Source: Balanoglossus misakiensis
Lineage: Eukaryota; Animalia; Hemichordata
Length of the DNA: 64,000 nt
Reading direction: 5' to 3'
NCBI GenBank assembly: GCA_040954595.2
Contig: CM082589.2
Coordinates: 5,391,186-5,455,185, forward strand
Made by a program: the position numbers and the translations under genes
Notes under the pieces: model-generated
What the model saw: the letters and a program-made list of their open reading frames with translations, nothing else
What the model was told of the DNA's origin: nothing
Database searches by the model: none
Shown here: piece by piece, positions 13,670-64,000 of the stretch
Position numbering within the stretch: position 1 is the first letter of the stretch
How the letters are laid out: each line of letters starts with the position of its first letter

Positions 13670-17891
<4,222 letters not shown>

Positions 17892-37540: not shown

Positions 37541-39775
37541 ATGAGGGGAACGGCATACGGCAGTGTACAACCGACAAGGTCTGGAACCGTCGGCGAAGTG
37601 CGAGACGGCGGTGTCCGTGGTTGGCTGGTCGTTCTGGGCAGCCATGTTTGTTGTGTCTTCACGTTCGGTGGGTTCATGGTCATAGGTTTGTTCTTCGTTG
37701 CCATACAGCAAACATTCGAAGCAAGTTCAGCGAGTGTATCGTGGATATTATCACTGCAAATGTGTCTTCAATATGCCCTCGGTAAGTTTTCGGCAAGTTT
37801 TTGAATGCTGCAAGGCGACACGCCCTCAAACTGGGTCACAGTCCCCCAAGAAAGGGACTGTGACTCGATCAAATGTCTTCGGCGAACAAAAAAGAATGCA
37901 TTTCATTTCTTTCCGTATTCACTGATAGATATGCCAAAGTTCTATGTTTTGATGTAAGAAAACACGATCTTTTATTGAACAGTTGGAAATATGAAGAAAC
38001 GACCTTCTTGCACTTTCTCAAGGTTATTTATACAGTACAAGAATAAAGGGGACAACTCGAAGGCCGATTCGGGTGATTGATCAACTCCCTTTATTTATTG
38101 ATATTCCGAACCAAAGAGCCTCATTTACCACTTATAACCTCTTCACTTTGAATACTTCAATAGGTCCCGTTTCGAGTCTGTGTGTCACCAGAATGGGGTT
38201 TCGATTAACTGTTGGTATCGGAGCTTTGGTCTCTTCACTGGGATTTTTCCTGAGTGCGTTTGCTCCAAACTTGGAATACCTGTACTTCAGTTGTGGAATT
38301 CTTGTTGGTAGGTTTCTGATTTGTTATTTTACAATTTATTGGCATTCAATTAGTCAAGACAGTCGTCCCCCTCTTTGAGAAATATACGAATGACTTATGT
38401 CATAACTTCTGGAAAAAAACTACCCATACCTACTTGTTTCTAAAGGAGGCGCTTGAACTTTTAGAAAATGCGCGCATAAGATATTTTTAAAATCCTAGCT
38501 GTTTCCTCATTTTGCGCACGTTTGTTGTCAAATATTAGAATTAATACAACTATACTTTGTTTCTCTTAAGGTATAGGATACGGTCTTGTGATGACCGCAT
38601 CTTTAGGAATAGTGCCTCTTTACATCAAGAAAAAGTATGCCGTGGCTAATGCTCTAGTCGTGACAGGAGCCGGTACTGGTGCATTGTTTCTCTCGCCTTT
38701 GATACAACAGCTGATAGCCTTCTACGGATGGAGAGGTGCGTTTATTGCCTACTCTGCCATCAATGCCCAGATGGTTGTCTGTGCCACGTTATACAAAAGG
38801 CCAAACACTGAAGCAGACAAGGAAGAAACGCAATATTTGAACGATAAAGAAGGTCTTGGGGAACCCAAACGCAAGAACATTACTGAACTTGTTGCAGGAT
38901 TTGGCTGTAGGCTTTTTGTGCAATACCCGTCATTCGCTGTTATATGTGTAGCGTATCTATCTGGGGTCGGGATTGGTCATTTGGGAGCTCCAGCGCACCT
39001 GGTTGCACGCGCTGAAGTTTGGCAACTGGGGAGCGAGCAAGACGTCGCCCTCCTGGTATCAGTCCACGGCATTGGTAGTATCGCCGGGCGGTTGTCAGTT
39101 CCAGCCCTGCTCCATCTAGGACGCCGACGCATGACCAGTCTCCACTGGTTCGGGTTAGCGTTTCTGATAGCAGGAGTGATAAACGTCATCAGTTCGCTGT
39201 GTAGAACATATGAACTATACATAACCTACTCAGTTGCTCTTGGAATCTTAAGTGGGATATTTTTCGCTTTCACCATACAAGCTATTAAGGACTCTGTAGG
39301 CGCCGAAATGGTAACAACTGCCCTTGGACTTTGCTTCCCGTTTGGTGCACTTGGGGTATTAATCGGCCCCCCTTGTGCAGGTAAGTTGTGATCACACAGC
39401 CATGCACGTGTCACGAAATGACACTAATAGAATCTCACATCCCCAAGAAATTTGATCAACGCTATTTATATAACCTATTCTGAAATATTTATGGGTAATA
39501 ATGTACACAACACGCTTAAATCGAATAATTAGATAATCTACTTTGTGTAACGATGTCAAACTACAATTATAACATGGCTGCGTCAGGGTCTCCTTGTCTT
39601 AATCTATTGTACTCTGTTGCATTTTGCAGGTTATATATATGACGTGACGGGTGATTACAACAATTCCTTTTACTTCTACGGTGCATTTTTACTTTTTGCC
39701 GGAACGATAGTACTCGTGTTTGGTCTGATCACACGAAAACAAGGGAGGCCGGGGTACGAACAGTTGGAGAAATAA
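37541..39775 (+). CDS. SLC16/MCT family transporter (copy 2)
   Basis: RDGGVRGWLVVLGSH, YGWRGAF, GPPCAGYIYDVTGDYNNSFYFYG...GYEQLEK*; same four-exon structure as copy 1. Confidence 0.9.
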
Positions 39776-40373
39776 CAACGGAACTGTGAAAGAATTCACA
39801 GAGTTAGTAAATTTACTGAGATGGCGACCTGAATGGACATTCGCGTTGTTTTCTCAATTATATATATTTTCTAAGGCGTATGTGAATTTGATACCTTTGC
39901 AGTTTTAACAACTTATTTACAACATGAAGTCCCTAAGGATATTATATTATTTCAGTATCATTTAATATTATAAATAAATAAACAATCGGAATAATAAATT
40001 GCAACATAAATTTCACTCCAGCAGTATTTGGTATCGAAGATTAATTTTTGGATTTGTTTTATAAGTACACATAAGTTGGCTTCTCAATATCAGGAAATAT
40101 GACAATGTGTACCATTATTTATTACAAAGCTAAAGCATTCTATGGTAGCCAGAGCTTAGTGACCAAATCTTCAATTTATAACGAACACCAGGAGCATTGT
40201 GTACGTATGATAGAAACGTGGCTTATCTACGTTACCCCACACGTCACACGTGCAAAGGGGTGGTGTACTATTAAATCTGCAGCGACTGTCATTGGCTTGT
40301 TAGTCGTTCTCCAGACAGGGGCACCGAACCTACGTCCTGAGATCAATTCGGATATGCATTGCATCGCCTCACC

Positions 40374-42797
40374 ATGAGAGGAACGGCATACGGCAGTGTA
40401 CGAGCCACACCGCAAACAGCGGCAAAGTCTGGAACCGTCGGCGAAGTGCGAGACGGCGGTGTCCGTGGTTGGCTAGTCGTTCTCGGCAGCCATGTTTGTT
40501 GCGTCTTCAACTTCGGTTTCTTCGTGGTCATAGGGTTGTTCTTCGTTGCCATACAGCGAACATTCGAAGCGTCTTCAGCGAGTGTATCATGGATATTATC
40601 ACTGCAAATGTTTCTTCAATATGGCCTCGGTAAGTTCTCGGCAAGTTTTGGAATGCTGCAAGGCGTTTTTGAAGTGTGCATCTGGGCGACACGCACTAAA
40701 ATCTGTCAACAGCCCTCGGCGAAGAACAGAACCGCATTTATTCTATTTTCTTTCACAACTCCCCTCAACCACAGCAGAAACAATTAGAGGCCGTGCTCCC
40801 TGACATATATTCCAAAGTTCTGTGCTATTATATAAGAAAACACGACCTCAACATTTACAAACATGGAGATACGACCATGTACTTTCGCAAGGTTATATGA
40901 CATCAAGTTGAAAAGGTCGATTAGAATGCTTGACCCACTTTCTTGATTTATCGCTATACTGTCGCGTGAAGTGTTTGGTCGTCTGGTAGGAAGGGGGTGG
41001 GTTCTATGGGCATGTAATATTGAAATGGGCAGTAATCATCCTTCATCGAATGAGTTATTTGCATATTTAGCCATTTCGTTAATTAGAAATATCGCATGGG
41101 AAACGAGCCCGATTTACTGGTTCCGTAAATAAAACCAAAGAGTCTCAATTACCACTAATAAACTCTACATATTCAATACTTCGATAGGTCCCGTTTCGAG
41201 TCTGTGTGTCAGCAGAATAGGATTTCGATTAACTGTTGGTATCGGAGCTTTCATCTCTTCACTGGGATTTTTCCTGAGTGCGTTTGCCCCAAACGTGGAA
41301 TATTTGTACTTCAGTTGCGGAATTCTAGTCGGTAGGTTTCTGAATCGTTAATTGATTTTCAACAGCCGTCCACCTCTATTGAGAAATGTACGAATGGCTA
41401 TAGTTAATTAAAGGTACTTGATTTTAAAGGGGCGCTTGTACTTTAAGAAAATGCACGACTGTCTACCAACTTTCCAGTGAAATGAAATGCCATTCGCACG
41501 AGTGATGTACACAGTTAGTGATTTGATATGTTATCAACCTCTTTTCGACTGTTTTCTGGAAAGGAATTGCATGACACAAATACATCATTCAAAACAGCTC
41601 AAACATCCAAACATAGACTCTTGCACTAAAATTCTGTTTCTCTTAAGGCGTAGGATACGGTCTTGTGACGACGGCATCTTTAGGAATAGTGCCTCTTTAC
41701 ATCAAGAAGAAGTATGCCCTTGCTAATGCTCTGGTAATGACGGGAGCCGGTACTGGTGCATTGTTGCTCTCGCCTTTGATACAACAGCTGATAGCTTTCT
41801 ACGGATGGAGAGGTGCGTTTATTGCCTACTCTGCCATCAATGCCCAGATGGCTGTCTGTGCCACGATATACAAAAGGCCAAACACTGATACAAACGACAA
41901 CGATGAAACACAATATCTGAAAGACAAAGAAGATCCTGGGGAACCCAAACGCAAGAGGATGTCTCGTTCGTTTGCAGCATTTGGTTGCAAACTTCTTGTG
42001 CAATACCCATCATTGGCTGTTATAAGCGTTTCTTATCTATTTGGAGTCGGGATTGGCTATTTCGGAGCTCCTTCACACCTGGTTGCACGCGCTGAAGTTT
42101 GGCAACTGGGAAGCGAGCAAGAGATCGCCGCCATGATGTCGATACACGGCATTGGAAGTATCGCCGGGCGGTTGTCAGTGCCAGTGGTCCTTCATTTTGG
42201 ATGCAGACGCATGACCAGTCTCCACTGGTTCGGGTTGGCGTTCCTGATGACAGGTGTGGCACAAATCATCAGTTCGCTATGTAGAACATATCCACTGTAC
42301 ACAACCTACGCAACTGTTCTGGGATTCCTAAGTGGGGCAATTTTCACGCTTGCCATTCAAGCTCTTAAGGACATAGCAGGTGCGGAGATGGTAACAACCG
42401 CATTTGGTCTTTGCGTCTCATTTAGTGCATTAGGGGTTTTAATAGGACCTACATGTGCAGGTAAGTTATGACAAAGGCGTGTGTACCGAACTGGTCTTGA
42501 AACATTCACGGGTAGTAATGCACATTAAATGCGAATTAAATTAGAACAAAAATGAAAATCGACATTGTGCAACGATGTAAAATGACAATTATAATATGGC
42601 TGTATCTGGGACTACTTGTCTTAATTTGTTGTATTCTGTTGCATTTTGCAGGTTATATATATGACGTCACTGGTGATTACAACAATTCCTTTTACTTCTA
42701 CGGTGCATTTTTACTCTTGGCCGGAACGATAATACTCATGTTTGGTCTGATCACACGAAAACAAAGGAGATCGGGATACGAGCAGTTGAAGAAGTAA
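40374..42797 (+). CDS. SLC16/MCT family transporter (copy 3, recent tandem duplicate of copy 2)
   Basis: Exons 1, 2 and 4 and some flanking intron sequence are near-identical to copy 2; ends GYEQLKK*. Confidence 0.9.
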
Positions 42798-43648
42798 CAA
42801 CGGAACTGTGTCTTGTTTTTATCGTGTCCTGTTGTACATAATTGAATATATACATGTACTACCAATTGCATCGTTTATGCGGTGTTTTTTTTTTTCCTGC
42901 AGGTGATATCCAAATGAGATAAACTAGCCCTTGGTGAACCGTGCTAAAATGAAACCATCGCTTCATTATAAATCCCCTTTGCAATCATAATTAATACTGA
43001 TAGAACTTGCATTCATTCATTCATCACATGTACACGAACAGTTATCTCCTCCCTGTTCCAGTACGGTCCGTCGTGTACAAGTTATACTATGAAACATGGC
43101 TACTGTATTGATCACATTTGCACCGGACTACTTTCAGCTTGTAAACATTGAACGCCATGAACGATAGAGGTGAACATTGTGCCGTAATTTGATTATTTCA
43201 ACCAGCTATCACCAGAAACTAGAATACGATATTAAATTGTTCGTATATTTGGTAACCTCAAAGTGATTAACGTTCCTTTTTATCGCCAGTGTTCTCAAAA
43301 ATCGCCAATGTGATCTTGCCACATGTAGCTCTGAACCAAAGCACCCATTAACTGACCAAACATGACCCCACTTTGCATAACAAAGAGTGCGTAATTTGGC
43401 CAATGAACGATCGTCAAGGATATGCGTCATGACTGCCGCATTACTGTACTGAATATCAAGACGCGCATGTAAGTAATCTGTCCTGTGCTCGTGAAAGTAG
43501 TGCCCTATACACCAGGTTACTCGTGAAAATAACTTATGTTCATGTTCAGAGGGAGCTCCATATAGAAACCAACGACACTGCCCTGGTGAAAACCGGTCGA
43601 CGCCCGTCTGTTAAAAGAATCCCTTAACTGGAGAAGGTTTTACCAGAC

Positions 43649-45929
43649 ATGATGCAAGCACCATCGGAACCAAGGAACGCTTGTGGAATGCAAGACGTGT
43701 ATGGTTGGTTAGTGGTCTTGAGCAGCCATATTTGTGGTATCTTCATGTTCAGTGCATACTCATCCTTGGGTCTAGTCTTCGTGGCCATACAGCAAACGTT
43801 CGAAGAGACCTCATCGCGTGTATCATGGATGATATCATTACTCATGTGTCTGCAAATGTGCATGGGTAGGTTTGTGGAAATTGTATGTTGGCGTGACTCT
43901 TATAGACAAGATAATGATGTGTTCACGTTTGGGGTTTAGGGTATGTATCGAGAGGAAATATTACATTGATGAATGATGACTTCTCCAGAGCTGCCTATTA
44001 GAAGATAGATCAAATTTAACAGTATTAGATGGTAAAAGAACATATTAATCAGAAAAGAAAACGAAACTATCTAATTCTGGCGTTTCATTGGTTTTTATAA
44101 CAAGCTCATGTGTTTCATGAGATATCATGGGAGCATGGGTATGAGCGACGATGCTTCAGTACATGTGTTTTTGTCTCACCAGTACAATTTTTTATTTTGT
44201 TTAGTATTAAAGCGACTGCTAAAACTGGAAGGAGTGTATATATGGCATATGCCATAGGCCTATATAAAGCTTTATAAATGGCATATGTCTGACCCGGCCG
44301 AAGCCATTTATACCGGGGATTGTGGAAAATGTTTTTTATTCGAAGATAACCTGTGGTTTAGAATTCCGAAAATTTGAATTTATTTCCAAAAGGAATTCGC
44401 ATAAAACCTAAAACGTGGCATATCTTAACTCGTTTTTATCACACATGACCCCAAATCTAAAATGTGAAGACTTCAAAACGGGGCTGACACAGCCGTATTT
44501 AATCCAAACTAGTGTCCTCTAAAAAGTGTATACCCGTTATAATTATAGCTCCTATTGCAACCTTGTATGTGAAGAAAATTGGTTTCCGGTTGACAGTTGG
44601 TGTTGGCACGATGTTATCATCCCTTGGACTATTTCTGAGTGCATTTGCTGCAAGTTTGGATGGTTTGTACTTCACTTGGGGCATCCTCGCTGGTAAGTGA
44701 AAACACTTGTATATTAAGGCATATTTTCATGATAAAAAATATAAATGTATTTAACATTCCGCAAAATATTTATGTATGTTTGGTGATCAATTGTTTTTGA
44801 TAACATATTTTCTCTAAGGTATAGGATACGGTCTTGTGATGCCAGCATCTTTAGGAATAGTGCCTCTTTACATCAAGAAGAAGTATGCCCTTGCTAATGC
44901 TCTGGTACAGACGGGAGCCGGTACTGGTGCCTTTTTGCTCTCGCCTTTGATACAAAAGCTGATAGCCTTCTACGGATGGAGAGGGTGTCTTGTTGTATTT
45001 TCTGCGCTTAATGTCCACATGGCAGTGTGTGGCACGCTTTTCAAAACACCTGATATAGGAAGAAACTACACAGAAATCGGAGCGAACGACGAAGGTGCAG
45101 ACAATGGCGTGAGGGGTAAAGAAAGAGACGGCTCCAATGGCTACAATGAGTGGAAACTCCGTGATGAGTGTGGTTGCTTGGTATACGGAAACTATTCAAC
45201 GCTCACCGTTTTATGCATAGCTTTCTTTTTCGGCGTTGGTGTTGGCTATGCAGGGTCCCCTGCTCACATTATCGCCCGCGCCGAAGTGTGGCAGATCGGC
45301 AGCAAGGAAGATATCGCTTTAATGGTGTCAGCATTTGGCATTGGTGGTATTGCTGGAAGATTGTCTGTTCCAGCTGTTCTACACTTTGGCTGCAGAAGTA
45401 TGACGAGTTCCCATTGGTTTGGATTGGCTTTTCTATTGGCTGGTATTGCAAACGTTTTCAGCGCGTTCTGTACAACGTATGCATTGTACACCACTTACGC
45501 ATTTACTTTTGGATTCCTGAGTGGACTATTTATGGCGCTTTCAGTACAGGTTGTCAAAGATGTTGTCGGTCCTGAAATGGTAACAACTGCCCTTGGATAT
45601 GTCCTTCCATTTAATGGACTGGGAGCAGTATTTGGAACCCCATGCGCTGGTAAGCTCAATATTGACACTCATATACATACATACATACACATACATACAT
45701 ACATACACATACATGCATACATACATACATACATACATGACAGTGATGATTTCCATATACTGCGCCCATTGTTAACTGATATTTAGTACCAAAATTCTGC
45801 TATTATTCTTACTTTGCAGGTTATATATATGATGTCACGGGTGATTACAACAATTCGTTTTATTTTTTCGCTGCATGTTTAATTTCTTCTGGTACGACAG
45901 TACTTGTTTTTGAACTGATAAAAAAGTAG
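43649..45929 (+). CDS. SLC16/MCT family transporter (copy 4)
   Basis: QDVYGWLVVLSSH...SRVSWM, KKIGFRLTVGVG, YGWRG, GTPCAGYIYDVTGDYNNSFYFF...ELIKK*. Confidence 0.88.
45670..45738. repeat. (ATAC)n microsatellite
   Basis: Imperfect CATACATA run in the last intron of MCT copy 4. Confidence 0.9.
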
Positions 45930-46014
45930 ATGGCGAAAGAAACGACAGAAAACCAGGACATCAGCAGTTGAATTAGAAATAGTGGTACTGATTATCCTTG
46001 ACATGTTTCACGCG

Positions 46015-46070
46015 TGTCTGGATTGTTTCGTCTCAACCAACCAACCAACCAACCAACCAACCAACCAACC
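46015..46070. repeat. (AACC)n microsatellite
   Basis: CAACCAACCAACC... run downstream of MCT copy 4. Confidence 0.9.
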
Positions 46071-46458
46071 ATATCTTGAAAGTCAAGTATGTTTTGCGTC
46101 TTCCCTTGGGTTTACATCATTGTCATTACTGTATGCATATGTCACATATTTCTTGAATTATTCGGAAGAACTTGAGTTATTTCGATATTTAACAATTGGT
46201 TTTACAAACCAATGTTGATTAAAAATATCTCTATCAACTAGATGTGTAAGTGTTGCTTAATTTCCTAGTTCCCCTGGGCGAGTAACAAAAGGCCGAGAAA
46301 ATGTGTGGAAACTTGCCTACATTATACAGTCACTCAGACAGTCATTTTATTTCGCAAAAAGAAGCATTTATCAGTATACCTCACAGACCTAGAATAGTGT
46401 ACAATTTCAAGTCTTGCGTTGACTTATCTGTTTTTACGTTTATTTTCTTTACTCAACG

Positions 46459-48972
46459 TCACCGATCCATGTCATGTGCTTCGACCAATGGTGTACTGGT
46501 TTCATTTGTTTTCGTTTGCCGTACACTTTTGACCAGTGTAAATAAGAATATTGTTGCACCGGCCAAGATTAGAAATGTTCCATAGAAGTAGAAGGAGTTA
46601 TTGTAATCCCCCGTGACGTCATATAAGTAACCTGAAAATACGAGAAAAAAATGTAAATGAGCCTCAATATTTGTTATGCACCGTAAAATCGGTTGTTTAC
46701 ATCCGGCAGGTCAAAGATCAAATAGACCAAACGCGTCTCAGCATACGCCATATTGGGATTCCCCGGACAGTAAAAATACGGAAAGTTATTGCACGATTCA
46801 ACGCCATAGGTTACGGCAGTAGGTGTATAATAATGCCAAAATCTATGTTCCAAACGTGATTGTATTTTCTAAAAGACACGTGATTATGTGATAACTCACC
46901 TGCACATGGCGGTCCGATTAAAACCCCAAGTGCACCAAACGGGAAGAAAAGTCCGAGGGCAGTTGTTACCATTTCGGCTCCTAAAGAGTCTTTAATAGCT
47001 AGTACGGAGACAGCGAAAAATATCCCACTCAAGAATCCAAGAGCAAATGAGTAGGTCGTGTACAGTTGATATGTTCTACACAGCGAACTGATGACATTGA
47101 TCACCCCTGCCATCAGAAGCGCTAACCCGAACCAGTGGAGACTGGTCATGCGTCGGCGTCCTAGATGGAGCAGGGCTGGAACTGACAACCGACCGGCGAT
47201 ACCACCAATGCCACTAACAGACATTATGAAAGCAATTTCTTGTTTGCTCCCCAGTCGCCAAACTTCGGCGCGTGCAACTAGATGTGCTGGCGACCCGCAG
47301 TAGCCGACGCCGACTCCCAAGAGATAAGCCCCGCACAAAACAGCAAATTCTGGGTATTGGACAAAAAGAACACATCCAATGTCGTCAAGGAGTGAATTCA
47401 CGTCCTTGTATGTCTTCCCATCTTCTTCCCCAGGTTTCTGCGCGCTCTCTTCGATCCTCGTGTTTGCTTCGTTGTCTTGTCGTTTGAATAACGCGGCACA
47501 GACAGCCACCTGGGCGTTGATGGAGGAATACGCGATAAAAGCACCTCTCCAGCCGTAGGCGGCTATCAGAGCTTGTATCAGAGTCGGCAGCAGAAATGTA
47601 CCAGTTCCACCTCCCGTCATTGCCAAGGTATTAGCCAGGGGATATCTCCCTTTGATGTAAAGAGGCACTATTCCTAAAGATGGTGACATCATCAGACAGT
47701 ATCCTATACCTTGTAGAAATGCGATAGTCAAGTTAACTACGAAATAATAGATGGAACTGGTAAACATCTTGAAACATCCTGGCATAACTATATTATGACG
47801 ACCTTGATCAAACGTATTGCATACGAAAGGTATATACTGGCATATAAATACAGATATCGATTTGAAATGTATACATGTAATTTATGTTTTAATAGTAGTT
47901 GGCAAGTTCCTAGCTTATAATATAGTCGAGGCTAATTTTTGTAATTGAAGGCTTTGCAATTATTAAAGCCGGAACATACGAGTAACTTCTGAAATATAGA
48001 CTTACCAACAAGGACACCATAAGTGAAGTACAAATATTCCACATTTGGAGCAAACGCACTCAGAAATAGTCCGAGTGAAGAGATCGCCGCTCCGATACCA
48101 ACAGTTAATCGAAATCCTATTCTCTTCACGCAGACACTCGTAACTGGACCTGTTGAAATATTACAAAGACTGTAAAATAGATAGTACATGTATATCAATC
48201 ATATATTCTGAAATACATGTGGGCATTTGCGATATGAAGTCTTCATGCTAACTTCATAACAGTGTTTCCAAAATTCCATTTCATATGCCATACATCCGGA
48301 CCAGACAAAACCCATTGGAAGTTCTAAATATAAGTCATACACCATTTACGTCAATTCTTTGCTATTGATTCATAGTCTCAGTTTATACCCATAAATAAAG
48401 TGTAATGATTGTGCTGGTGGGATACGAAGCACACACATATGTGCTAGCATCAAACTAAAGGTTATAATACCAGGTGGTACTGCGAGAGAAATGGGTACCC
48501 ATGCATGTTCTCAAAATTACGGGAAAAGTGCTTTTTTCGAAACTAACCTGGCCCGTATAATGATTCGCATACCTATCGGATATTCCAAACACATAAGTTA
48601 CCCTCTGGGTCAAACTATAACGTGATTTTGCTTCAGTATGTTATATGTTTAGTTTGGGTGCAGAAACATTTCATCGTCACCATTCACAAACCTACCCAAG
48701 CTCAATTGCAGACACAGTTGCAATGATAGTATCCATGATATACTCGTGGAAGATGCTTCGAAGGTCTGCTGTATGGCGACGAAGAAGAAACCTATGGCCG
48801 TATATCCACCGAACACGAAGATGCAGCAAATATGGCTGCCCAATACGACTAACCAACCATAGACACCGCCGTCTCGAATTTCATCGGGGTTTTCTGTCGT
48901 TGATGGTGCTTGTTCCGTGTTGGGTGATACTGCAGGTTGTACTGTGCCGTACACAGTTTCGGTTCCTGTCAT
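46459..48972 (-). CDS. SLC16/MCT family transporter (copy 5, inverted)
   Basis: MTGTETVYG...RDGGVYGWLVVLGSH, KRIGFRLTVGIG, YGWRGAF, GPPCAGYLYDVTGDYNNSFYFYG...HDMDR*. Confidence 0.9.
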
Positions 48973-49424
48973 GGTAGGGCAGTGAACTATTCGTTCGAAC
49001 AGATCTCGGGAAGTTTTTTCGCCTTTATCGGCAAAACTTGTACACCAAAATAACGTTATGGCTGTATATCTAGTTGTCCCTGACGCTGTGAAACCCCTGG
49101 CTGACGTGTGCTGTGTGTAATTAACGAGCAACTACCCACACGACCTTGGGATCGCTATTTATAGAAGTTGAGTTTGTGCACAATGTCATGTCAGCCACAA
49201 AATAACCACATATGACTATTTGTACCGCTTTAGACGTTATCTCAATTCCATTTCAGCTTCAAATGAAATGAAATATGATAGAGATATATCCTTTCTGTAT
49301 GGTGCGAACGGTTTTGATTAGTGTACATGATTTTATTTTTAAACATTCCGGATGCAGGCAAACTTTCACAAACATAATCGCTGAACGCACAAACTTCCTC
49401 AACAGAAAGAACATCGGATTATAA

Positions 49425-49655: not shown

Positions 49656-52600
49656 ATGAAGTACACATTCGGCAACTACCTCGTTGTTGGGTTTTTGTGT
49701 GTATGTTGGACGGTTTTCAGCGAACCTGGTGAGTATGTACACGGACGCATTTTTTGCATCTTTGAAGAAAGCAACCTTAGAGCAGATATTTAATGGGTAA
49801 TTGTTAGTCCAATGTGTGCAACCCAGACGAAAAAAAAAATATTCATGAAAGCAAACCTCATGAGAAGATCTACGACAGTCTTCTGTGTGAACCGAATAAT
49901 TACTTAAAAATACTTTAATTTAAATTCAACACAATTGCGTAAATTAGTTAAGATTTCTACTATTTTGTTATTTCAGTGGAGATTCGACTGACTGGCGGCC
50001 GGACCCCGTTTGAGGGAAGAGTTGAAGTGAAAAAAGATGACGACGATTCGTGGAGATATTTGTGCGGAATCGGCAATGAATGGAACCTTATGGCAGCCAG
50101 AGCAATATGTAAACAGCTAGGTAAAGGCTTGGTGTTTATAGTTGCATGTCAAATGGTGGAACATTTTACATTCAAATATAAATGGGGGGAGTCTGTCAGT
50201 AGTTAATAAATTCGCACTGACTTCATGTTTTCTTATTCAGGTTATTATTCTGTAATGTGGGAATGGCACAATAACGAATTTGGTAAAAGTCACCTACAGT
50301 TGTCTGCCTGTATAAACAAGTGTCATCCAACGTCAAAATCGCCAAGGGACTGCACCCTGTATTGGCATGACAACCAGAACCGATGTCTATGTCACAACCA
50401 TAACTACCTTGGGGTAACTTGTTACTGTAAGTAAACCATTCCGAGAATAACCCAGACTTGATTGTTTTCTAAAGATAAGTAAGGAAGATATCCCATATTA
50501 ATGTTTTGTTAACGTGTATGATTTTAGAAAAAATGACACATTTTCCAAATTAGGTCTAATATCCATGACTATTTTTCTGTGGTATGTCGTGACAACATCA
50601 CAACCATGTATCGAATGGGGTCATTTACCATACACAGTCAAACTTGTGTTAGTGGCCACCTCTATATAGCGGAAACTTCTTTATAGTGGCCACTTTTTAC
50701 ACTTCCCTTGCAATTTTATATGTTCGTTAATGGACTTGTCTGTAAAGGCCATTTGTCTACATGTATAAAGGCCAGCTTCGGAAAGTGATATGACTGGCCG
50801 CTATAGACAGGTTTGACAGACAGGTTAGTTCCAGCGTCACTTCAGTTCCAGGTTTCCTTGGGCGCTACAAGGAGGCTGAGCCGAGAGTCTTTCCCGTTGG
50901 CACGGTAGTGCCTTTATCCCAGAGTAACGGGACGATACACGGCTGCATTAGAGAATGCCAGGATCAGCAAAAGGCTTTCGCGGTTCTTGAGAGTGGTGAC
51001 GAGTGTTACTGCGGCGATGACTCTGTCGAATACTGGCGTTACGGAGAGGCTGTTCCCGGAAAGTCCATACTGCCAGACACAGCTGCCGTGAAATACAACA
51101 CACACCAGTGTGAAGGCGATACTGGCGTGGCACCATTCATACAGGGCTGTGGAGGCGATTGGCAACTGGACGTATACACAAGTGAGTGGGCCCTACATAT
51201 ATTGTGAATGATTTTTCAATCATGTATCACTTATGCTAAACACTTGATTTGCCAACCAATCAAAGATAACGCTCATTCTCCCATACAGCTTGAGTGATAT
51301 ATTTCCGATTTTATGCGCAAATCGGCTTCTTTATTTATGGGATGAGCACCTACCATATCTACTAGTACAGATGCCTCTATCGATGTAGGCAACACCCCAC
51401 CACCCAGGATATATGTATTGTTTTTCGTTGTAGCTTCCTTTGGTAGGTGTGGTGGTGACTACACTGCTTCAAGTGGATACATATATTCACCAAACTTTCC
51501 TGGTAATTATACCAACGGGCAAAACTGCACATGGACGATAACAGTTGATGCTGGACACACTGTAGAGCTGGCCACTCTTATGCTGAGGTTACAAGACAAC
51601 GACTTGGTGATTGTAAAGGATGGCATAGATGAAGATAGTCCTATCATTATGGTTTTTAGTGGATCTTCACTGCCGCAGACATTAAACAGTTCATCCAATT
51701 CTCTTCGTGTACAAATGGGTACCGATAACTACGGCAATGATCTCGGATTTATATTACGATATGAAGGTAAAACATATCAATCATGTCTCTTGTTTACTAA
51801 ATTATAAAAGACAACAATATACATGTAATAGATATCGTATTCTCAGGATGTGAGACAAAAATTATCCCTCGGTAATAAAGTGCATATCACTTTACTATAG
51901 AAACAATTTTAAGCATGTTTACGATATATTTGCAGAAAGCACAGTGTCGCCGGTTCAAGGCGAAATCACGAGCAGCCAGCGACAAACAGCAAATACGCTA
52001 ACCACACGAAATCCCACGGTAAGAGTGTCACAAGAAACAGTCCACGTCAGCAACGTCCCACGTGATTCGACGGTCACAAGCCCGACACCAACGACTGCTA
52101 TGAGTACATGGGGGAGGACATCTCTTGAGACCTTACTTTATATGAGTAACAATCAAAGGCAATCTGCTGTGTTTACAAGGATTCAAACCTCGGTTACCTC
52201 ACTTAGCCAAACGGCCATCGAGGAGTTCGACACAAAACGCGAAAACGTGGACCCCAAGATAACTACAATTGGTGCAACGAGAGACACATCCATGCAGACG
52301 ACAGTCACAGACTCTATGCGGAGCCAATCACCAGCTTTGACAGGAAATAGAATCACAAGACCACCTAATCAACCTACAGTTGCAAACACCGCATCTCTGG
52401 GGATAGCCATTTCCGCCACAGCGACATCGTCTATTTCTACGCCACAATTGAATATGAAAACAGAAACGTATGGTCATCACACGACGGCAGGGCACATTTT
52501 GAGCCAAAAACAGAAACAAATTTTCGGTAAGTGAGTATATAAAAGCAAAACTTCTATATGATTGTAAGAGGTTATGGAATTTGGCACGTGGTCATAGTCT

Positions 52601-54055
52601 AAGAAAGATAGAAAAAATCCAGTATAGTCTAAACTCTGGTCTGATACAGTACTATACACTTGGCAGAATAGTATATAAATAATCTCATGGGTTGTTTGAT
52701 TTGCAGGTTTTCTGTATACATATATTGCTGTTGGCATATTGATCAGTTTAATCATCATCACAATCATAGCGATCCTTACCATGCTGATGTACAGAACAAG
52801 AAGGTAAGTCGTCCCTGAGTATAAAATGAAAACCATGCGAACAGCACGACCAAATAAAATTCTGTAGAAATTGGAAACTAAATTAGGATACAAAGAATAC
52901 TTCCAACAGAGAATATTTGTGTAATATTAGGTTTTTTGAATACTAGTATATGATTCTTTGGTAAATTTTGTCTTTAGATTCTTTCTATTTGTATTTTTGC
53001 ACAGAAAAAAGAGGAGAAAACCACGTAGAGAACGTGCTGAAAATTCAATTGGCGGCAACAGGCACGATCATGAGCTTGGTGAAGTTAACACTGAAGTCCA
53101 AGAAGCTAGAAGAGACTTGTCCTCGTCGATGGGACACGGCGGATCAGATGTTCAAGAGGATGATGCACTTCGAGAAGTTGTCACAGTGGAGTACGCCACG
53201 TTGGGTCCTGGTACGGATGGAGGGGAAAGACGTCAACAGACAGAGCAAGCACACGTATCTACCCCTGACAATGTCAGTGGAATAAATGAGACAGATGTGG
53301 AAAAAGAAAACAACTCGGAGGACAGTTTTGCTGAAAACCGTGAAGGCAGCGAGGCTACTGTCGATGATCCATCCGCTCTGTATGCGCAAGTCAACAAGAA
53401 GAAGGATGCCCGAAGTACAATTGATGCCGAGTCTTCGGTTCCAAGTAATGGTGGCACACAAAACCAGACGGCGCTGTATGCCCGAGTCAACAGTAAGATT
53501 TGCGAGAGCAATGTTGAATCTGTGGTTACAGACAGTGTTGGTGACCTTTATGCCCAGGTCAATAAGACCGGAAAGGGAAGTCATAGAGGAAAGAGCAGGG
53601 TGGCAAACGGCCGGAAGTTACAAACAAACAGTGTAAGCCTGATGGACAGCGCTGAAACATCTGACCAAGATGCCCCTATTGTACCAGAAAGAAGGTTGTC
53701 GTTGTCCGACGACGAGTGTCACGATGCGGAAAGCAGACAAGACAAAGTAGACCAACCAACTGGACGAAACGCGGAAGAAAATGAAGCTTTATATGAGGAA
53801 TTGAGTGCAAAATACCATACGGCAACACCCAGTACAAATGGTGATCTTGACACTGAATCGAGATTTGTGACGAACATCCTTTACGAGTCAGTCGACGGTA
53901 AACGTGGTGTATCGACCACTGGACAGGATTGTGGAACTACCAATAACAACTGTCATCAGTCGGTGCTCATCGACAATGTCATCTACGAATCGTTTGACGA
54001 GAGGCACGGTACCTCACCAGGTGGTGAAAAGAATGGTACAGTCAACACTAAGTAA
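49656..54055 (+). CDS. Type I membrane receptor: SP-SRCR-WSC-CUB-Ser/Thr stalk-TM-long Tyr-motif tail (receptor 2)
   Basis: MKYTFGNYLVVGFLCVCWTVFSEP; [16 protein letters not shown]...AICKQLG; CIRECQ...ECYCG...CEGD...GCGGDW; CGGDYTASSGYIYSPNFPGNY; Thr-rich exon ~51936-52527; TM YIAVGILISLIIITIIAILTMLMY; ~350-aa tail with YAQVNK repeats. Confidence 0.88.
50635..50819. mobile_element. Tc1/mariner-like MITE in a receptor 2 intron
   Basis: CAGTCAAACTTGTGTTAGTGGCCA ... TGGCCGCTATAGACAGGTTTGACAG inverted termini with internal TATAGTGGCCAC-like subrepeats; TA target sites are degraded. Confidence 0.6.
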
Positions 54056-54687: not shown

Positions 54688-57600
54688 TTACAGTTCATTT
54701 GCTGACTCATAAACAATGTTATCGACAAAACCTTCACCTGCCATCCCCGTTGTTGCAGGTTTGGTATCGCCGAGGGATTCATAAAGCACATTATCAACGA
54801 ATTCTGCCTCGTTGTGTTTCTCCTTCTTTGATTTATCGACTTGAGCATACATTTGCTGTGGGTCATCGTCTTGTAAACGCGCCTGGCTTCTCTCTGGCAC
54901 ATCTGGTGCCCTTTCGCCGTCGTTCTCTTCAACTACATAGTCTCTCTTCATGCCGAAATCGCCATGTGGTCCGATTTCATCACTGCCATTATATCTAGTC
55001 GACCTCTTTTTGTTTACGGTCTTAGGCACGTCTACCTCGGCATACGAGTCGCGACTGTCAGGATAGTTGTGGTTTCTGGTCTGTTGGGCACCGTCGCCAT
55101 GATTATACGCAGGGTCAAGCAGGTCCTGCCCAGTTGCAAGAGCCCCGGATGTTGGAAACTCTTGTGGCTGGTCACCCGCACGTCTGTTGCCGACGGGCTT
55201 GTTGACATCTGTTACAACATATCTTCCAGGGTAGGTCGCGTCTCTGTCGTTGCCTTTGTTCTCGGGCACATCTACATTGACATACGAAGCACCAACTCGT
55301 GAAAATTTATGGTCGTTGACCTTTCCCCTCGCCCCCTCCTTCTCATCTGCAGGACCAAGTATCTCGTACTCAGCCGTCAGAACTTCAGACGTTGGTGTCT
55401 CTGCTGGTTGCTCGGCTACACCTCGGACAGGTTCGGAATTCCGCTTGCGAGACTCGTTCAACGGTGGTTCCATTAGGTCAACTGTATATCTGTTCGTGTT
55501 CGCTGGCGTTGTCAAGTCAGGATTTCCACTTTCGGTTGATCCACTTCCTTGAATCACATCAGGAATAGTTGGCATGCCGAGTTCTTCAGGTTTCTGATGA
55601 TTCTTTCTGAAATAATTGTAAATAAGATGCAATTATCTCTTTTGCAAAGTCATATTACTCAACACAGACAACGAAACATTTCTCTCAATTTTTGGTAACA
55701 GATATGCATCATTTTCTGCCAATGGTCATGTCGTTTATCTTTCAGTGCATATCAAATATAAAACAGATAATTGGTCCCAACTTACTTTGAACGTTTCCGC
55801 AACAAAACAACTACCACAATTATCAAGAGTATCATGATCAGCAGTATGGCAATACCAGCACCGACACCAATGTACATGTCTGAAACTATACATAAAAATA
55901 CAACGTTTATTTAAGAACTAACATTTCTATTTCTTAAGATGGTTAGTGTTTTGTATGACGCCGCAGATAAATATTCACCGAACCAAGATAAATGCAATAA
56001 CCAAATACATAAGTCACCTCACTGACACCACGTTTTTGTTTCGCTTGACTTGAATGATTTGTGCTATACTTCGAAAACAAAGTGCATCACTCTGCCTCAA
56101 TTAGGAAAATGGATGTATCAGTAATATCGAAGATACGCTGTGACCAGTCGTATATAATCATCTTGTCGTGCTTACCACCGCTCAATGTGTCTGGCATTCC
56201 GGAGGGGGCGTTATCGGATGTCGTTGAAGGAGAAGTGTTTGACTGCGCTGGATTTGGAGTCACCGTCACCTGTTCGGTTCTGTCACTCGTCATCCATTCT
56301 CTTGCAGTGGATGTTCTTGCATACTGTGGAGTGTCTGTATGTATAGTCGATGTTTCTGTGCCGTTCCACACAGCTGAGAATACAAACAGGTTAACTTTAT
56401 CAGTTAATGACACAATCATCACACCTTTTCCTATGATTCAAGGGTGCACTACGATGGGCTCTTGAAAAGTGATCAAATTCAATAATTAAAAACCTGCCTT
56501 CATAGTGCAGAACGAATCCCTGGCCATTTCCTTCATTTGCAATCAATTGAATATGGAGAGCGTTGGATGAACTGTATAATGGCTGCGGTAATGAAGACCC
56601 ACTATAAACACTAATGGTAGGGCTGTCTTCATCTATTCCATCCTTCACAATCACTGCGTCGATGCCTTGTAGTCTCAGCATAAGAGTGGTCAACTTTACT
56701 ATATATCCACCATCCACTGTTATTGTCCATGTACAAGATTGTCCATTTCCATAATTACCAGGAAAGTTTGGTGAATATATGTATCCACTTGGTCCAGTGT
56801 AGTCACCCCCACAGGCACCAAAGGAAACTGAAAATGATTAATCTAGAACTTAAACTGCTCTACAGCTAACAAATTATATGAGACTATATAACCCGATAGA
56901 TTGACCGGTGCACACAAGGTTCAGATAAGTGTGGGTGATATTAGATTAAAACTTATCTAAACAAGCGAACTGGTTGATAATACATAGAACACGATATCAT
57001 GAAACAACAACTGAAAACTAGTGATTACAGTAGATGGATACCTACTGTTGTAAATGTCCATTTGCCAATCACCTCCACAGCCCTGTATGTATGGCGGTGT
57101 GCCATTATCGCCAGTACACTTCTTTGTATTGTACTGGAAAGAACTATCGTCAGATACTATTATTGGTATTCCTGGAATCGCCTCTCCATAACGCCAGTAA
57201 TCAACAGATTCATCACCACAGTAACACGCACCACCACTTTGAAGACCCGCAAGAGTCTTTCCTTGGTCTCGACATGCTTTAATGCACCCTTCTATTGTAT
57301 TAGTGTCTGGTCGCGATGGTGAATTACCAAATATCCTATAGCTCGATGCTTGAACATCTTTATAACGACCAAGGAATCCTGGATCTAATACATAGGAAAA
57401 CATGCCTTAAGGTTACGTGAATATATAGTTACGACGAGAATGCATTGAACCCATGTCAGCAGTTTGCTTTTCACATGATCAAGTAAAGTCACAAATTGCT
57501 ACGGAAGGAACGATGTCAGTTTACAATTACTTCTAGATTCAAAATGATTTAATTTGGTACATATAATATATTCAAAGTAAGAAACAAACTAACACGATTT

Positions 57601-58592
57601 CTTCCAACATGACGTACGCAGATAAAATATATTTCCTGTGGAATTATTTTGAAAAGTGAAAAACTTACAGTAACATGTAATTCCTACATGAGGCCCGTCA
57701 TCACACTGACACTGATCTCCGTTTTCATTCCAATCTATGGCACAGTTCTGTAAAGAATCTGACAGTGGATCACATATGACGTCACAAACAGAGGAATTCG
57801 GATCACTTCTGCCAAATTCACTGTTCGGCCATTCCCACATCACAGTAGAGTAATCTATGTTATTAAACGGAAAACACCATGATGATGAAGATGACAGGCT
57901 TGGTTAATGCAAATGTCATATTGTAAAAACAAAATGGGCATATAAAGTATGGTTTATGAATGCAATGTTACTTGTGTTGGCATAAATGTACTTTTGCAAG
58001 CTTTATACGAACTACTTCGCTGTAATGAACGTTACCTAATTGTTTACATATGGCCCTTGCTACTGTTAAATTCCAGCCTGCATCAGTTCCACAAAAATAC
58101 CTCCACGAATCCCCTACGTTACTTCTTACTTCAACTCTTCCTTCGAATGGCGTCCTTCCACCCACCAAACGAACCTCGACTGAAAAGAAGATTGCGTTGA
58201 TTAATGTAGACCTTTCTGACGTGCTCATTTGACAAGACACATTCATAATATCCATGCATCGTTGATACAGTGAAGAAAATGCATTGTATATGGTTTGATA
58301 TGACATTCTCCTGTGTAACTTAATCCTGGCAACATATATAGAGAGATTGAAGACATGCATTACCCTCAACAATTCTGACGAGGCCTGTACAAATGGCCCA
58401 CAAATTATAGAATATTTACTTCCTGGTAGCTTTTTAAAGGGATTATTGAGCAACAAGTATACATGTCACTACTCTTTCTGTTCAACGTTTAACATTACCT
58501 TGTTCGCTGATTTCTACCAGTGTAAGACAAACCAATATCCCAAAGATAATTTTACCACGAGAAAAAACACGAACGACGACAGACAGCGTCAT
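54688..58592 (-). CDS. Type I membrane receptor: SP-SRCR-WSC-CUB-short stalk-TM-Tyr-motif tail (receptor 3)
   Basis: MTLSVVVRVFSRGKIIFGILVCLTLVEISEQ; [16 protein letters not shown]; CIKAC...CYCG...CTGD...GCGGDW; CGGDYTGPSGYIYSPNFPGNY; TM YIGVGAGIAILLIMILLIIVVVVLL; tail ends FVDNVLYES...FVDNIVYESANEL*. Confidence 0.88.
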
Positions 58593-59224
58593 TGCTGTTG
58601 ACTTCAGTTCCTTATCAACTCCAGCCCACCGCCGTCACTTATTTCCCTTTCACTTGTGTGACCGCACAGACCGACGGTACACAAAGGCGCAGTAGGCTAT
58701 TGTCACCGGTCGTGCACGTATTCATATGTAAATATCGAATGCCTTTCAAAACAACGTTCACCACTTCCCTATATGAATACATCCCGTTTGGCGTTTTGAT
58801 TCTCACCTGGGGTGGGGTAGTCCCATAAAAAGGTGTACGAGTATAACTTTCCTTTGATATGTAAAATATTGTCTGCCATCCTTGCTGAAAGGCTGTCTGT
58901 TTATACCAGGCTCCCTAAAAGGAGATGTTTGATCGTTCGTTTGATCGGTCGTGTTTAACAACATACAAGGAAAAGATGCAAAAATGACAATTTACTTGAC
59001 AATTGTAAAATAAAACGCAACAAAAAGCAAAGTAATGATTGACTACCCATTCATATCGAAAATGTCCAGGTCTGAATGTTAATTTGAACCAAAAATGACC
59101 TTGGATAACTATCACCAACCTAAGGAGAGCTTTCAGAGCAATAAAACATTTCCACTGAAAGAATCTACCAGTGCACAACGCCCACACCACTGCTGCAAAC
59201 ATTTCGTGGCACCCATCTTGCAAC

Positions 59225-61999
59225 ATGGCATTATCCAAACCGAAGATTGAGATCAAGATAGTCGGCGACGTTGTATGACCCTGGTGTTGGATCGGGCAGA
59301 GGAACCGAGAGGCTGCCATCAAGGAGACTCAAGGTAAAAACAGCGATCGTTCCGATTTGCATATGCCAGCAGCTCATTCATGTTGGGGTTCTGCTCGTTC
59401 AAATTTTGCTGAGTCACACTTGGTGAACATGCGTTGGAAATGCGAAAAAGAGTTGTAATTATCGTTTAAGCAACAAACTTACAAGTCATCAGTAATTTAC
59501 TACAAGAAAACGAAGGACAAATTTGTTGCATGCTTGAAATAATCGTTCAAGCAACATAAATCAAGTTATTTGCTACAAAAAATAAGGATTTGTAAGTTCT
59601 CATTTGAGAAATTTTAAACAGTTTTAAATTAGCAAATTCCAAAATAAATGAGCGCATTTTACATGTACTCTTGACTAGCCCACTAGTCGCTTGGTGATTT
59701 TTTGTCTTTAGGAAGATTCTGAATACTTTTCGTGTGTTTGCTTGCTTTGGGCGAGTTTCTGGTACTGAGCTGAGTTTCGAATTTGGGGGCTGGGCGTCTG
59801 GTTTTGGTCCAACTTAAGCGCTCACACTCGCGTTTGCTCCAGAGACTCGGAACAAAATTTTCTGATTTATTATAATGGAATAATGCAGCCCATAGACGCG
59901 GAACAAGTCTACATGTACAATGTACGCATAAAAACCTACCAACGACCTCGTTTTCTTTACTGCCGTGGTCATCAGTGCATGCTGGGTCAGTACCCTGGCG
60001 GCAACCCTGAAGTCGCCACGCCCACTAAGGGATAACTCATTTAATATTGGGGCGGGCGACTAGAGGATTTTCGAGAAAAAGATGTTGCTAGCCACTTTAG
60101 TAAATTATCTTATAAGCTACAGTTCCTAATCTCCCCATTAATTAGAGTTACCCGTTTGAGTCGACTTTGAATAATTCAGTACAGGTACTTGAATTTCCTT
60201 TACACCCCCCCCCCCGAAATATCTTATGTGTAATCCCTAATAAATGTCCCTCTGCCGGTGAACCAACAGTAGGCCAGTAATCTAAATTACACGCAAAAAA
60301 GTGAATGAAGTCTACGTTCAAATTAATGCCTGCAATTTTACAATGTATTTATATCGTTAACGTCCCGGCGTATTTTGAAATTTTGCAAGCGCACAGGTCA
60401 ACGACACAGTAAATCGGTCATTATGTATATGAAGGTCACATCGCACTAGTATGGAAATGAAGCTGATGCAGCTAACAATAGCAAAAGCGAGGCTATGCTT
60501 GTGAATAAATAGATCCCGACAATAAAGCCTGGCTGTGCTCTCAGCTGTGGCGAAATATCACTAACCATCGTTCACGCTTGACGTTAAGTATGAAATGATA
60601 TCGTATGACAGAGAGACTTGCACAATAAAATCAACAGCAAAATTGCCACTAAATATATGTAGCTTATAAGTATACGTACGACTATGTGTCATGAGACACT
60701 GCAATTGCAACGCCTGTAAATATTAATTAATCCGCAGAATCACTAGTAGTAAGGCACTTTGTCAAATCAAACCTTCATGTATGGATGATTGAACGTGGTT
60801 CACCCTCCAGCCCAACATTCGCGTTCGTTTTTTCAAATTTCTATAACCCTTACCTTAGTTATACATATGTAAATTGATGACATGAATAATTACTTGTCGA
60901 CCTCTATAATGAACACTTATCATATTTTAATATCTGTAGATAAATATGAGTTCACCTTCCACTGGGAGCCTTTCTTCATCAAGCCCGATACTCCACCAGA
61001 AGGCTTTGTTAAACCAAAGCCACAGCCTGGTAATCCAAGGTAAACTTTCACCTTATGAAACAGCGACAGAGTTAAAACAACGCATGAGATCGCTAATTTC
61101 TGTACTTTAAGAAACTCTGATATCAGGGTTTGATTTTTTTAGCTTGCGTCTCCATGCCTGGACATTCTTTCAAAATAGTTACCATTTGGAATATCTCATT
61201 CGCCGTTTAAAATACATTTATTATCACGCGATCAAATAGAAATTGTTAGTGTTATATTTTCCATAATTAATATTCTTACCAGGGTATCTGAACGCCTGAA
61301 GAACATAGGTGAGGGTGTGGGCATAGACTTCACTGGCAAGAGTGATATTCTGCCCAACCCCACCCTGTGCCACGCCCTGTTGGAATACGCCAAGGAAGTC
61401 GGTGGTGGAAAGAAACAAGATGAAGTCCAGGAATACATGTTCAAGGTTAGTATTCTGCGAACGAAGCTGGTGTTAAATTATCATTTTAAAATGAGTCAAT
61501 CACCTGTAATTGTGGTCGAATGGGTAAAGGGTTGTAACATTCGAAGTGCTAGGTGTATATTGCAACTTAAATCTTCATTGGCAATTCTACACACAGGCCT
61601 ACTTCACAGACGGCCCACCTGACGGACTACTGAAGGCGGACTTCGTGTTGAAGGTGGCTGGAATGTCCGGTCTGGACACTCAGAAGGCCGAGGCCTACAT
61701 GATGGATCCTGCAAACCAACAAGCAGTGGTTGCCACGGCAAAGGCATGGAGAGACAAGGGTGTCAGCGGTAAGTATAGGTGCTACAGCACCGTTTTTCCC
61801 ATGTTGAACATTTGAGTCGAAGACAAACTAGTTACTAGTGTATCGCTTAATCTAATAACGTTCATGCATATGTTCTTAAAGTATATCTCACTCTTTTACA
61901 GTTTCTCCAACTTTTTTCATGAATGGTCAGCAGATCTTCAGTGGTTACCAGGATAAAGATGCGTTTATACAGGCTTTTGAAACCGTTGCTAAATCCTAA
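59225..61999 (+). CDS. DsbA/FrnE-family thioredoxin-fold selenoprotein (UxxC), five exons, TGA at 59276-59278 read as Sec
   Basis: MALSKPKIEIKIVGDVV-TGA-PWCWIG matches FrnE DxxCPWCxIG; later exons give WEPFFIKPDTPPEG, GEGVGIDF, PNPTLCHALL, FKAYFTDG, GVSVSPTFFMNGQQIFSGYQ; all four introns are GT-AG and in phase; SECIS downstream. Confidence 0.9.
60026..60240. mobile_element. PIF/Harbinger-like MITE in intron 1 of the selenoprotein gene
   Basis: TAA-GGGATAACTCAT ... ATGTGTAATCCC-TAA: imperfect terminal inverted repeat with TAA duplication. Confidence 0.55.
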
Positions 62000-62183
62000 A
62001 GCAAGAGTACATAGCATCATACGTGACATCTTTTGGCACTGACACAATATTAGATCTAGATATTTTTTTATTATTTCCATAAAAATGTTGAGCAAGGTTT
62101 ATAGGGTAACATGACAAAATACTTCGACGTTTTCTGGTTGTACATAATGGCACGCATATCTCTTCACTCTATCAGCTAATTTC

Positions 62184-62243
62184 TTGCAGTTAATGATGAC
62201 TCTGGATCAAATCCAGGATTTAGAGTCTGATAAAGCCCTGCAG
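62184..62243 (+). promoter_or_regulatory. SECIS element (type I) in 3' UTR
   Basis: TTGCAG-TTA-ATGAT-GACTCTGGATC-AAATCCAG-GATTTAGAGTC-TGAT-AAAGCC-CTGCAG: helix I, AUGA/UGA non-Watson-Crick quartet, 11-bp helix II, apical AAA; ~190 nt after the stop codon. Confidence 0.9.
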
Positions 62244-63733
62244 ATCTAGCAAATGTAGACAATGGACGATGAGCGTGCAAATTGTGTTTCTCCAGCAAAC
62301 GGGCATAGTATTTTTATGTAATAAAAGAAAACGATACGATAATATTTTTTAAATTGAATATGTGATGTACTTCATGATATGTCAATATATCCTGATTATG
62401 CACGTGAGACAAACCGATCAATTGTAATTTGTTCTTGTATTTTCATCTTTGGGACATGAAGATGTATGTATTTTCTGTTCTGTTTTGGCATTGCGAGAAA
62501 TAAACTTTTTAGATCTGCTCAAACATTGGAATACTTGTCATCATTACATACTTCATAACTTGAATTACGATTGTCACCAATCATCGACCTTGTCAACACA
62601 TTCATATTTATAATGAGATCAGATGCTTCATTTCGTACTTAGAACATGCACTTTACAGTTTTCACGCGTATCATGAGATTCTTAAAAACATAGCTATCTA
62701 AAGATTTTGCCAACATTTATCGAGATAGAAAAAGTGCAGGCATGGGCGTGGGAAAAGATGAACAACACATCTCTACGGGAGGTCTGATACAGTTTGGTGA
62801 AAGACAGAACCCAAGGTCAGACCACTTCGACTGAAAAGAAATTTATGCCGTCGCAGCACTGCCTCATGGAAAATATGAAATGTATCCATGGATACCGACA
62901 GTCAACATTCATAAATTTCAATACATTCTCGATCAACCATATCAAGATTTTACTGCCCAAACATCCAAATTCTGGGCAGAATTCCAAACAGTCTTTTATA
63001 CCTATAGAATTGGCCATTATACAGTACCCATAAACCAGTCCGGGTTATGACCTTGGGTGGGACCAGGATGCATAGACAGTTTGCATATTCAATAACAAGT
63101 CAAAGCACATGTTGAACGCTGCCCCAGCTGCTTCTGGTCGTCCTGACCGACATGACTCAGCCAGTTCACGGTTCTCATTGGATAACATGATATACACAAT
63201 CACATATAGGCATTTTTATTTCAGCGTTCTTAAATATAAATTCGTGGTTATGACTGAAAAGCGCTAAATGAATACACTTTTTACATAAGATCCATTCAAA
63301 TGCCTTCAGATCTCGAGTTAACATAATCGTTTAATTTCGTTAATAATTAATTGGTATGTATTATATTTGCGTTATTTTACCCTGTTCGAATTCTTTAACT
63401 ATTTAGTGATTCGTCGTTTTAGCGTGTTTGTTTAAAGTTGCAAAAACGCCTGACAGCAAGTAAACAACTTACCAGTGAAAGTCTATTATTGACATAATAA
63501 TAGCATCATAAATCGTGACCGGTTAGTCGGGTTGCGTCTGATTGGCCGAGCGCAGAGCCCATCCCCTGCGTCGCAACAAACTACGCATTATTCTGCGGCT
63601 AGGCACACAAGGATAGGATCTAGGTCGCCCAGTTAATAGGGAGTACGTACATACACGTCGCGCATCGCACCACAAACTGCTATAACGCCATTACAATATT
63701 CTGTATTCGCATTTTCTCAGGTTAGCAAGCAGG

Positions 63734-63839
63734 ATGGCATCCAAACCGAAGATTGAGATCAAAATTGTCGGCGACGTTGTATGACCCTGGTGTTGGATCG
63801 GGACGAGGAACCGAGAGGCTGCCATCAAGGAGACTCAAG
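63734..63839 (+). CDS. Second DsbA/FrnE selenoprotein paralog, first coding exon (gene runs off the window)
   Basis: MASKPKIEIKIVGDVV-TGA(63782-63784)-PWCWIGTRNREAAIKETQ followed by a GT donor at the same position as in copy 1. Confidence 0.82.
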
Positions 63840-64000
63840 GTAAAGTCAATCACCCACAATGCAAGCCTAGTACGGTTGAACTACAGTGCATTTAAGCTTA
63901 CCTCGCCAACTCGATATCACTGTGTGAATCTGACAGTTATATTCACTGTATGTATATTTTATGTACAATGTACACAAATAGCGCAGTCATTAGTTCAGTT

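Follow-up and report, generated by a model that had tools for sequence, protein, structure and literature searches.

An intact five-exon gene that very probably encodes a predicted selenoprotein of the FrnE/DsbA family was found in the window, by which we mean the whole stretch of 64,000 nucleotides that was analysed. The UGA at codon 18 of this gene would very likely be decoded as selenocysteine by means of a SECIS hairpin in the 3' UTR, and the combination of a UGA at the catalytic position with a SECIS-shaped hairpin past the stop codon makes a selenium-containing redox enzyme the very likely product. The gene belongs to a selenoprotein family known from reports on marine invertebrates from 2010 onwards. 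Its parts are the following:

59225-59333, + strand: coding exon 1, with the ATG; residues 1-36, with the first strand and the active site (U-P-W-C)
59276-59278, + strand: in-frame TGA, codon 18, predicted selenocysteine, in the context D-V-V-[TGA]-P-W-C; the first splice donor follows 55 nt later
60940-61039, + strand: coding exon 2, GT-AG, in phase and collinear with homologues
61283-61445, + strand: coding exon 3, helical insertion domain; the third Cys is residue 99
61597-61768, + strand: coding exon 4, weak Pfam DSBA match (E 0.037)
61902-61999, + strand: coding exon 5, Val-Ser-Pro loop (Pro184); TAA stop at 61997-61999
62184-62243, + strand: type I SECIS-like hairpin, without a third helix; core 194 nt past the stop codon and about 780 nt past the UGA in the spliced mRNA
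62320-62325, + strand: first AATAAA past the stop codon, 3' of the hairpin, presumably used as poly(A) signal

A script check of this gene model confirmed that all exon borders are GT-AG with the phase kept, and that the spliced coding sequence of 642 nt specifies 213 residues, the four introns being 1606, 243, 151 and 133 nt long. The TGA at codon 18 is the one internal stop among the 213 codons and no frameshift was found, so that the four further in-phase exons of the original prediction are all confirmed; its placement of the TGA at the first Cys of a CPWC motif proved equally sound, since codon 18 falls on the first Cys of the CPWC of FrnE (5cnw) when exon 1 is compared with PDB sequences. 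Independent support for all four junctions comes from one protein, P0229, the closest homologue, which spans them in an ungapped alignment with 168 of 210 residues identical (80%). At the Sec position P0229 shows W, and this may well reflect a UGA read as Trp by a gene caller. The UGA of the window gene, 55 nt before the first junction, falls at the edge of the 50-55 nt rule and, speculatively, selenium shortage might therefore lead to degradation of the mRNA. In prokaryotic DsbA-like selenoproteins the recoding hairpin adjoins the UGA. A candidate recoding hairpin beside the UGA of the window gene was rejected, as between 205 and 629 of 1000 synonymous recodings were equally stable. Several homologous loci (L161, L189, L223, L180, L126 and L236) are predicted to form a small hairpin with upstream codons, the loop of which contains or borders the UGA; the window copy does not form this hairpin of its eukaryote-like homologues.

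The hairpin downstream of the stop codon consists of helix I, an internal loop, an A-UGAU core at 62193-62197 with UGAU at 62228-62231 on the 3' side, and a helix II of 11 bp that contains no mismatch and two G-U pairs and is closed by an 8-nt loop beginning with AAA. Excerpts of PMC3753652 describe a type I SECIS by a UGAN/KGAW core, unpaired apical adenines and a spacing from the UGA that exceeds about 111 nt; the hairpin has this core, helices I and II and the apical AA, and it lies on the same strand as the gene, past the stop codon and beyond that distance from the UGA. A point against it is the small size of its 8-nt apical loop. When both strands of the window were scanned with our own pattern, it was the most stable and the sole mismatch-free hairpin among 18 loose candidates, and among 2000 dinucleotide shuffles of 62000-63000 a match to the strict form of the pattern occurred in four, and matches to two looser forms in 29 and 77. 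The fold of the 131-nt hairpin region had a z of -4.29, with none of 200 shuffles equally stable. The canonical SECIS that had been proposed at this place is accordingly upheld in its anatomy and by the rarity of strict-pattern matches in shuffled sequence. An Rfam scan over 58000-64000 returned no SECIS match, and a scan of 101 bases placed SECIS_1 at the top of five matches, though its 22.9 bits (E 0.01) fall short of the gathering score, which is 35. Rfam likewise found a SECIS in none of five related intronless eukaryote-like Sec loci and therefore appears insensitive here; with our own pattern, the downstream hairpin in these five loci was good in L140 and L180, weak in L132 and L167 and absent in L176. 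A match of Hammerhead HH9 over the SECIS was rejected (17.3 bits vs 52), the CUGAUGA and GAAA core being missing from the alignment. A second AATAAA occurs at 62499, and a weak variant, CATAAA, at 62078, upstream of the hairpin.

The assignment to the FrnE/DsbA family is carried by the N-terminal exon and by close relatives of the protein. Exon 1 matches positions 2-25 of Pfam DSBA (E 0.00039) and has Deinococcus FrnE as its best PDB match. Single exons of the window gene stay below the Pfam DSBA cut-off, while P0229, the 80% relative, matches PF01323 DSBA with 69.2 bits vs a cut-off of 25.6 over profile positions 2-189 of 191, and the Atlas clusters nearest to exon 3 have DSBA in 17-45% of their members. 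The fold was assessed from models of two relatives, P0005 (the L140 protein) and P0229. The P0229 model (pLDDT 96) had Deinococcus FrnE as its best Foldseek match, with a TM of 0.81 and an E of 1.6e-13, and FrnE was likewise the top match of the P0005 model; all top matches were FrnE, pointing to a thioredoxin fold with a helical insertion, closest to FrnE, and the earlier expectation of a complete thioredoxin-fold protein agrees with these models. U-P-W-C at residues 18-21 corresponds to the N-terminal CP(W/F)C-type motif, and no C-terminal CxxxxC is present in the window protein. Also in agreement with the original prediction, no hydrophobic leader was found, the highest 19-residue hydropathy being 0.79 and the domain beginning by residue 10; the predicted protein is likely cytosolic. 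The NCBIfam Rcas_1661 selenoprotein family was rejected as an assignment (27 vs 190 bits, far under the cut-off).

The same active site is widespread. The DNA pattern D-x-x-TGA-P-W-C was found at a minimum of 120 loci in prokaryote genomes and at least as many in metagenomes; in 142 of the 240 listed loci the reading frame remains open for 150-260 codons past the TGA, and many of the others stop at the locus edge or at an apparent intron. Two intronless, eukaryote-like loci, L132 and L140, have the TGA in the same place and are 42-45% identical to the window protein over 210 residues, the best among the matches listed. The UPWC site also occurs in eukaryote-like loci that contain introns (L126, L209, L189, L161 and L133), and their apparent first introns lie at positions unlike that of the window gene. 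Homologues gathered via L140 and profile searches came from animals, protists and bacteria, many of them being cut just past the Sec position; ORF-based annotation had been expected to truncate such genes, and many database entries are indeed N-terminally cut. The anticipated Sec/Cys pairing at codon 18 was evident in the 217 other aligned homologues, 159 of which show C in this column (four of these being TGA counted as C), with W in two; the sequence is conserved to either side of it. A quick tree of 53 rows pairs the window protein with P0229 (SH-aLRT 100) on a long stem, which sits in a clade of 24 rows (SH-aLRT 95) that includes the named animal members, from Acanthaster, Diadema, Saccoglossus, Aplysia, Littorina and Neocalanus. 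This tree and the nearest neighbours of the protein are consistent with a marine invertebrate. A protein labelled as belonging to a Paraglaciecola MAG (P0078 / P0023) groups with eukaryotic homologues beside Creolimax in the same tree, which may be due to contamination or transfer. Word-based protein searches with exon 1 and exon 4 gave no match, and no relative of the gene was found in viral contigs.

Two features of the locus were overlooked by the original prediction. One is a second exon 1 with its own TGA:

63734-63839, + strand: second exon 1, with ATG, TGA at 63782-63784 and an intact GT donor

This exon is 96% identical to exon 1 over 106 nt with flanks that are not alignable, and a tandem paralogue, extending past the end of the window, likely begins with it. 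The retention of the TGA in the second copy despite its diverged flanks counts in favor of the selenoprotein reading. Shortly 5' of the second exon 1, at about 63720, lies the end of a tract resembling a splice acceptor, which suggests that this copy has a first exon that is non-coding.

The other feature is an altered loop beside the active site. Compared with the 217 aligned homologues, the window protein matches 37 of 47 well-conserved columns and departs at ten. Residues 182-184 are Val-Ser-Pro in place of a near-invariant Gly-Val-Pro, with Pro184, the putative cis-proline, kept; the residue before it is Val in 207 of 215 homologues and Ser in one, the close relative P0127. In the sources consulted, Gly-Val-Pro is frequent in the FrnE subfamily without defining it. 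Tyr197 stands where 194 of 214 homologues have Ala. A splice error behind Val-Ser-Pro was rejected because P0127 and P0229 carry identical residues, and the exon 5 junction together with this loop is common to both proteins. P0229 shares all ten departures, including Ser72, which indicates a stable lineage in which they are old and fixed and argues against decay; the changes fixed between these two 80% identical proteins include Val-Ser-Pro, Tyr197, Gly14, Gln25, Arg28 and Pro96. The residue preceding the cis-proline tunes the redox potential in thioredoxin folds, and thioredoxin with Ser, Thr or Cys at that position was more oxidising and showed increased insulin reduction (excerpts of PMC2665069). 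Given the ten departures from the family, the window protein may not share the activity known from bacterial FrnE.

The same evidence bears on the question of whether the gene is alive. Its ten departures from the family consensus, an adjoining duplicate that could supply the function, the Rfam score of the hairpin under the cut-off and the interpretation of tandem selenoprotein copies lacking a SECIS as dying genes (PMC3473315, in excerpt) could all be taken to mean that this is a pseudogene or truncated gene, whose TGA is a true stop and whose hairpin arose by chance. However, all ten departures are common to P0229 and hence old and fixed, every splice site is intact and neither a frameshift nor a second stop is present, the second copy and at least 240 loci have TGA in this very column, and a comparable hairpin arose in just four of 2000 shuffles, which leaves a dead gene highly improbable. 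The second exon 1 could in turn be an uncollapsed allele or an orphan fragment without a working paralogue, a view to which its 96% identity to exon 1 lends some weight, as does the fact that the window contains this exon alone of the second copy, whose further exons and SECIS would lie outside. Yet similar flanks would normally be expected of a duplicate that is allelic or due to assembly, whereas those of the second copy are dissimilar past the donor site, and start codon, TGA and GT donor are all retained; we therefore regard an allele or fragment as rather unlikely.

With a living selenoprotein gene as the preferred reading, its activity has to be considered. We lean, by analogy, towards a disulfide reductase/isomerase role for the predicted protein. 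An altered loop and pocket could have moved the selenoprotein off the protein disulfide reduction of the FrnE type; a more oxidising potential would be one such change, and chemistry on glutathione or small molecules, as in DsbM and kappa-class glutathione transferase, another. Tyr197 and the Ser before Pro184 would fit such a shift, as would the more oxidising Ser, Thr and Cys variants of thioredoxin, and DsbM and kappa GST do occur lower in the fold search. The same thioredoxin variants, however, gained insulin reduction (excerpts of PMC2665069), UxxC and Pro184 are unaltered, and in the fold search with the P0229 model FrnE is far ahead (TM 0.81 vs 0.63-0.68), so that a moved activity appears improbable, if worth bearing in mind. 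Similarly tentative is the idea of a lineage-specific, tandem-duplicated Sec-FrnE branch which has rebuilt the surroundings of its Sec and thereby acquired a new redox potential or substrate; this, too, we think unlikely.

A mechanism can be outlined from known systems. By the known eukaryotic pathway, the SECIS kink-turn would bind SBP2 or SBP2L and recruit eEFSec with Sec-tRNA. In keeping with thioredoxin-fold chemistry and with Deinococcus FrnE, the selenolate of Sec18 would attack a substrate disulfide and Cys21 would resolve the mixed bond. The resulting Se-S bridge would be re-reduced directly, by thioredoxin reductase/NADPH or glutathione, because the window protein lacks the CxxxxC relay at the C-terminus of Deinococcus FrnE. 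A probable role of the predicted protein, by analogy, would be to guard against disulfide, metal or oxidative stress.

FrnE of Deinococcus radiodurans (DR_0659; PDB 5cnw, 5co3) is described in excerpts of PMC8945050 as a cytoplasmic disulfide reductase/isomerase that has isomerase and insulin-reducing activity, is reduced via thioredoxin reductase and confers protection from cadmium and diamide. It shares with the window protein the CP(W/F)C-type motif near the N-terminus and the lack of a signal peptide, and is the best match both in sequence (exon 1) and in fold (P0229), at about 25% identity to the modelled relative P0229. The window protein differs from it in having Sec for the first Cys, no CxxxxC and an altered active-site loop, although some bacterial FrnE also are without the C-terminal CxxxxC (PMC8945050, in excerpt). 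Prokaryotic DsbA-like selenoproteins (PF01323, UxxC) have the same UPWC site, at the 120 or more bacterial genome loci mentioned above, but are intronless, and of the bacterial loci listed even those with the best scores do not exceed about 36% identity. With E. coli periplasmic DsbA, a disulfide oxidase, the window protein has in common the thioredoxin fold, the helical insertion and Pfam DSBA; DsbA, however, is exported and oxidises its substrates, whereas the window protein is without a leader, and classical DsbA structures score far under FrnE in the fold search with the P0229 model (TM about 0.5-0.6).

Closest by description, as distinct from sequence, are the metazoan DsbA/FrnE selenoproteins. 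According to excerpts of PMC2874816, a Sec-DsbA with a SECIS is present in Ciona intestinalis, C. savignyi and Branchiostoma floridae, and the Sec exon of those genes was mis-annotated as 5' UTR; excerpts of PMC3473315 report Sec-DsbA across marine invertebrates, including Nematostella, Lottia and Capitella, and its loss in vertebrates. The prior prediction of such proteins in aquatic invertebrates, to which our starting point had referred, is thereby corroborated. Like these proteins, the window protein has a UxxC site with Sec first, encoded in a first exon that annotation misses (excerpts of PMC2874816), its gene has a predicted 3' UTR SECIS with apical AA, and the protein groups with the animal homologues named above. 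It may be the product of the published amphioxus gene or of an orthologue. A single DsbA is tabulated for B. floridae, and the cluster section names no DsbA tandem, in the available parts of PMC3473315; likewise, the available parts of PMC2874816 and PMC3473315 make no mention of a Val-Ser-Pro loop. SelenoDB 2.0 curates the family as FrnE (PMC3965025, in excerpt). A functional or experimental study of an animal family member was not found in the literature searched.

Other genes in the window were delimited by Pfam matches:

9479-12700, + strand: BTB-BACK-kelch gene
14550-17110, + strand: ELP3-like radical SAM gene
21600-24935, - strand: EMP70/TM9SF gene
28244-28500, + strand: ribosomal protein S10p/S20e gene
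about 29400-49130, both strands: cluster of several major-facilitator transporter genes (MFS_1)
about 49950-54050, + strand: gene with SRCR, WSC and CUB domains
54690-58465, - strand: related gene with SRCR, WSC and CUB domains

The names of the first four are those we presume on top of their Pfam domains, and the genes of the MFS_1 cluster we take to be monocarboxylate-transporter-like. The two SRCR/WSC/CUB genes form a facing inverted pair; the last exon of both is long, of low complexity and matched by no Pfam entry, and the minus-strand one begins at most about 1 kb from the selenoprotein gene, head to head with it.

In summary, the gene offers a correction of annotation, as gene callers lose the active-site exon and leave the N-terminally cut entries described above, and its clean gene model with a SECIS provides a starting point for the study of animal members. 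To selenoprotein specialists the altered loop and the tandem copy could matter as well, small as these additions are. The family is one of the few selenoproteins common to bacteria, algae and invertebrates and is reported to be lost in vertebrates; if a retuned branch does exist, it would represent a natural experiment on a UxxC enzyme that vertebrates lost.
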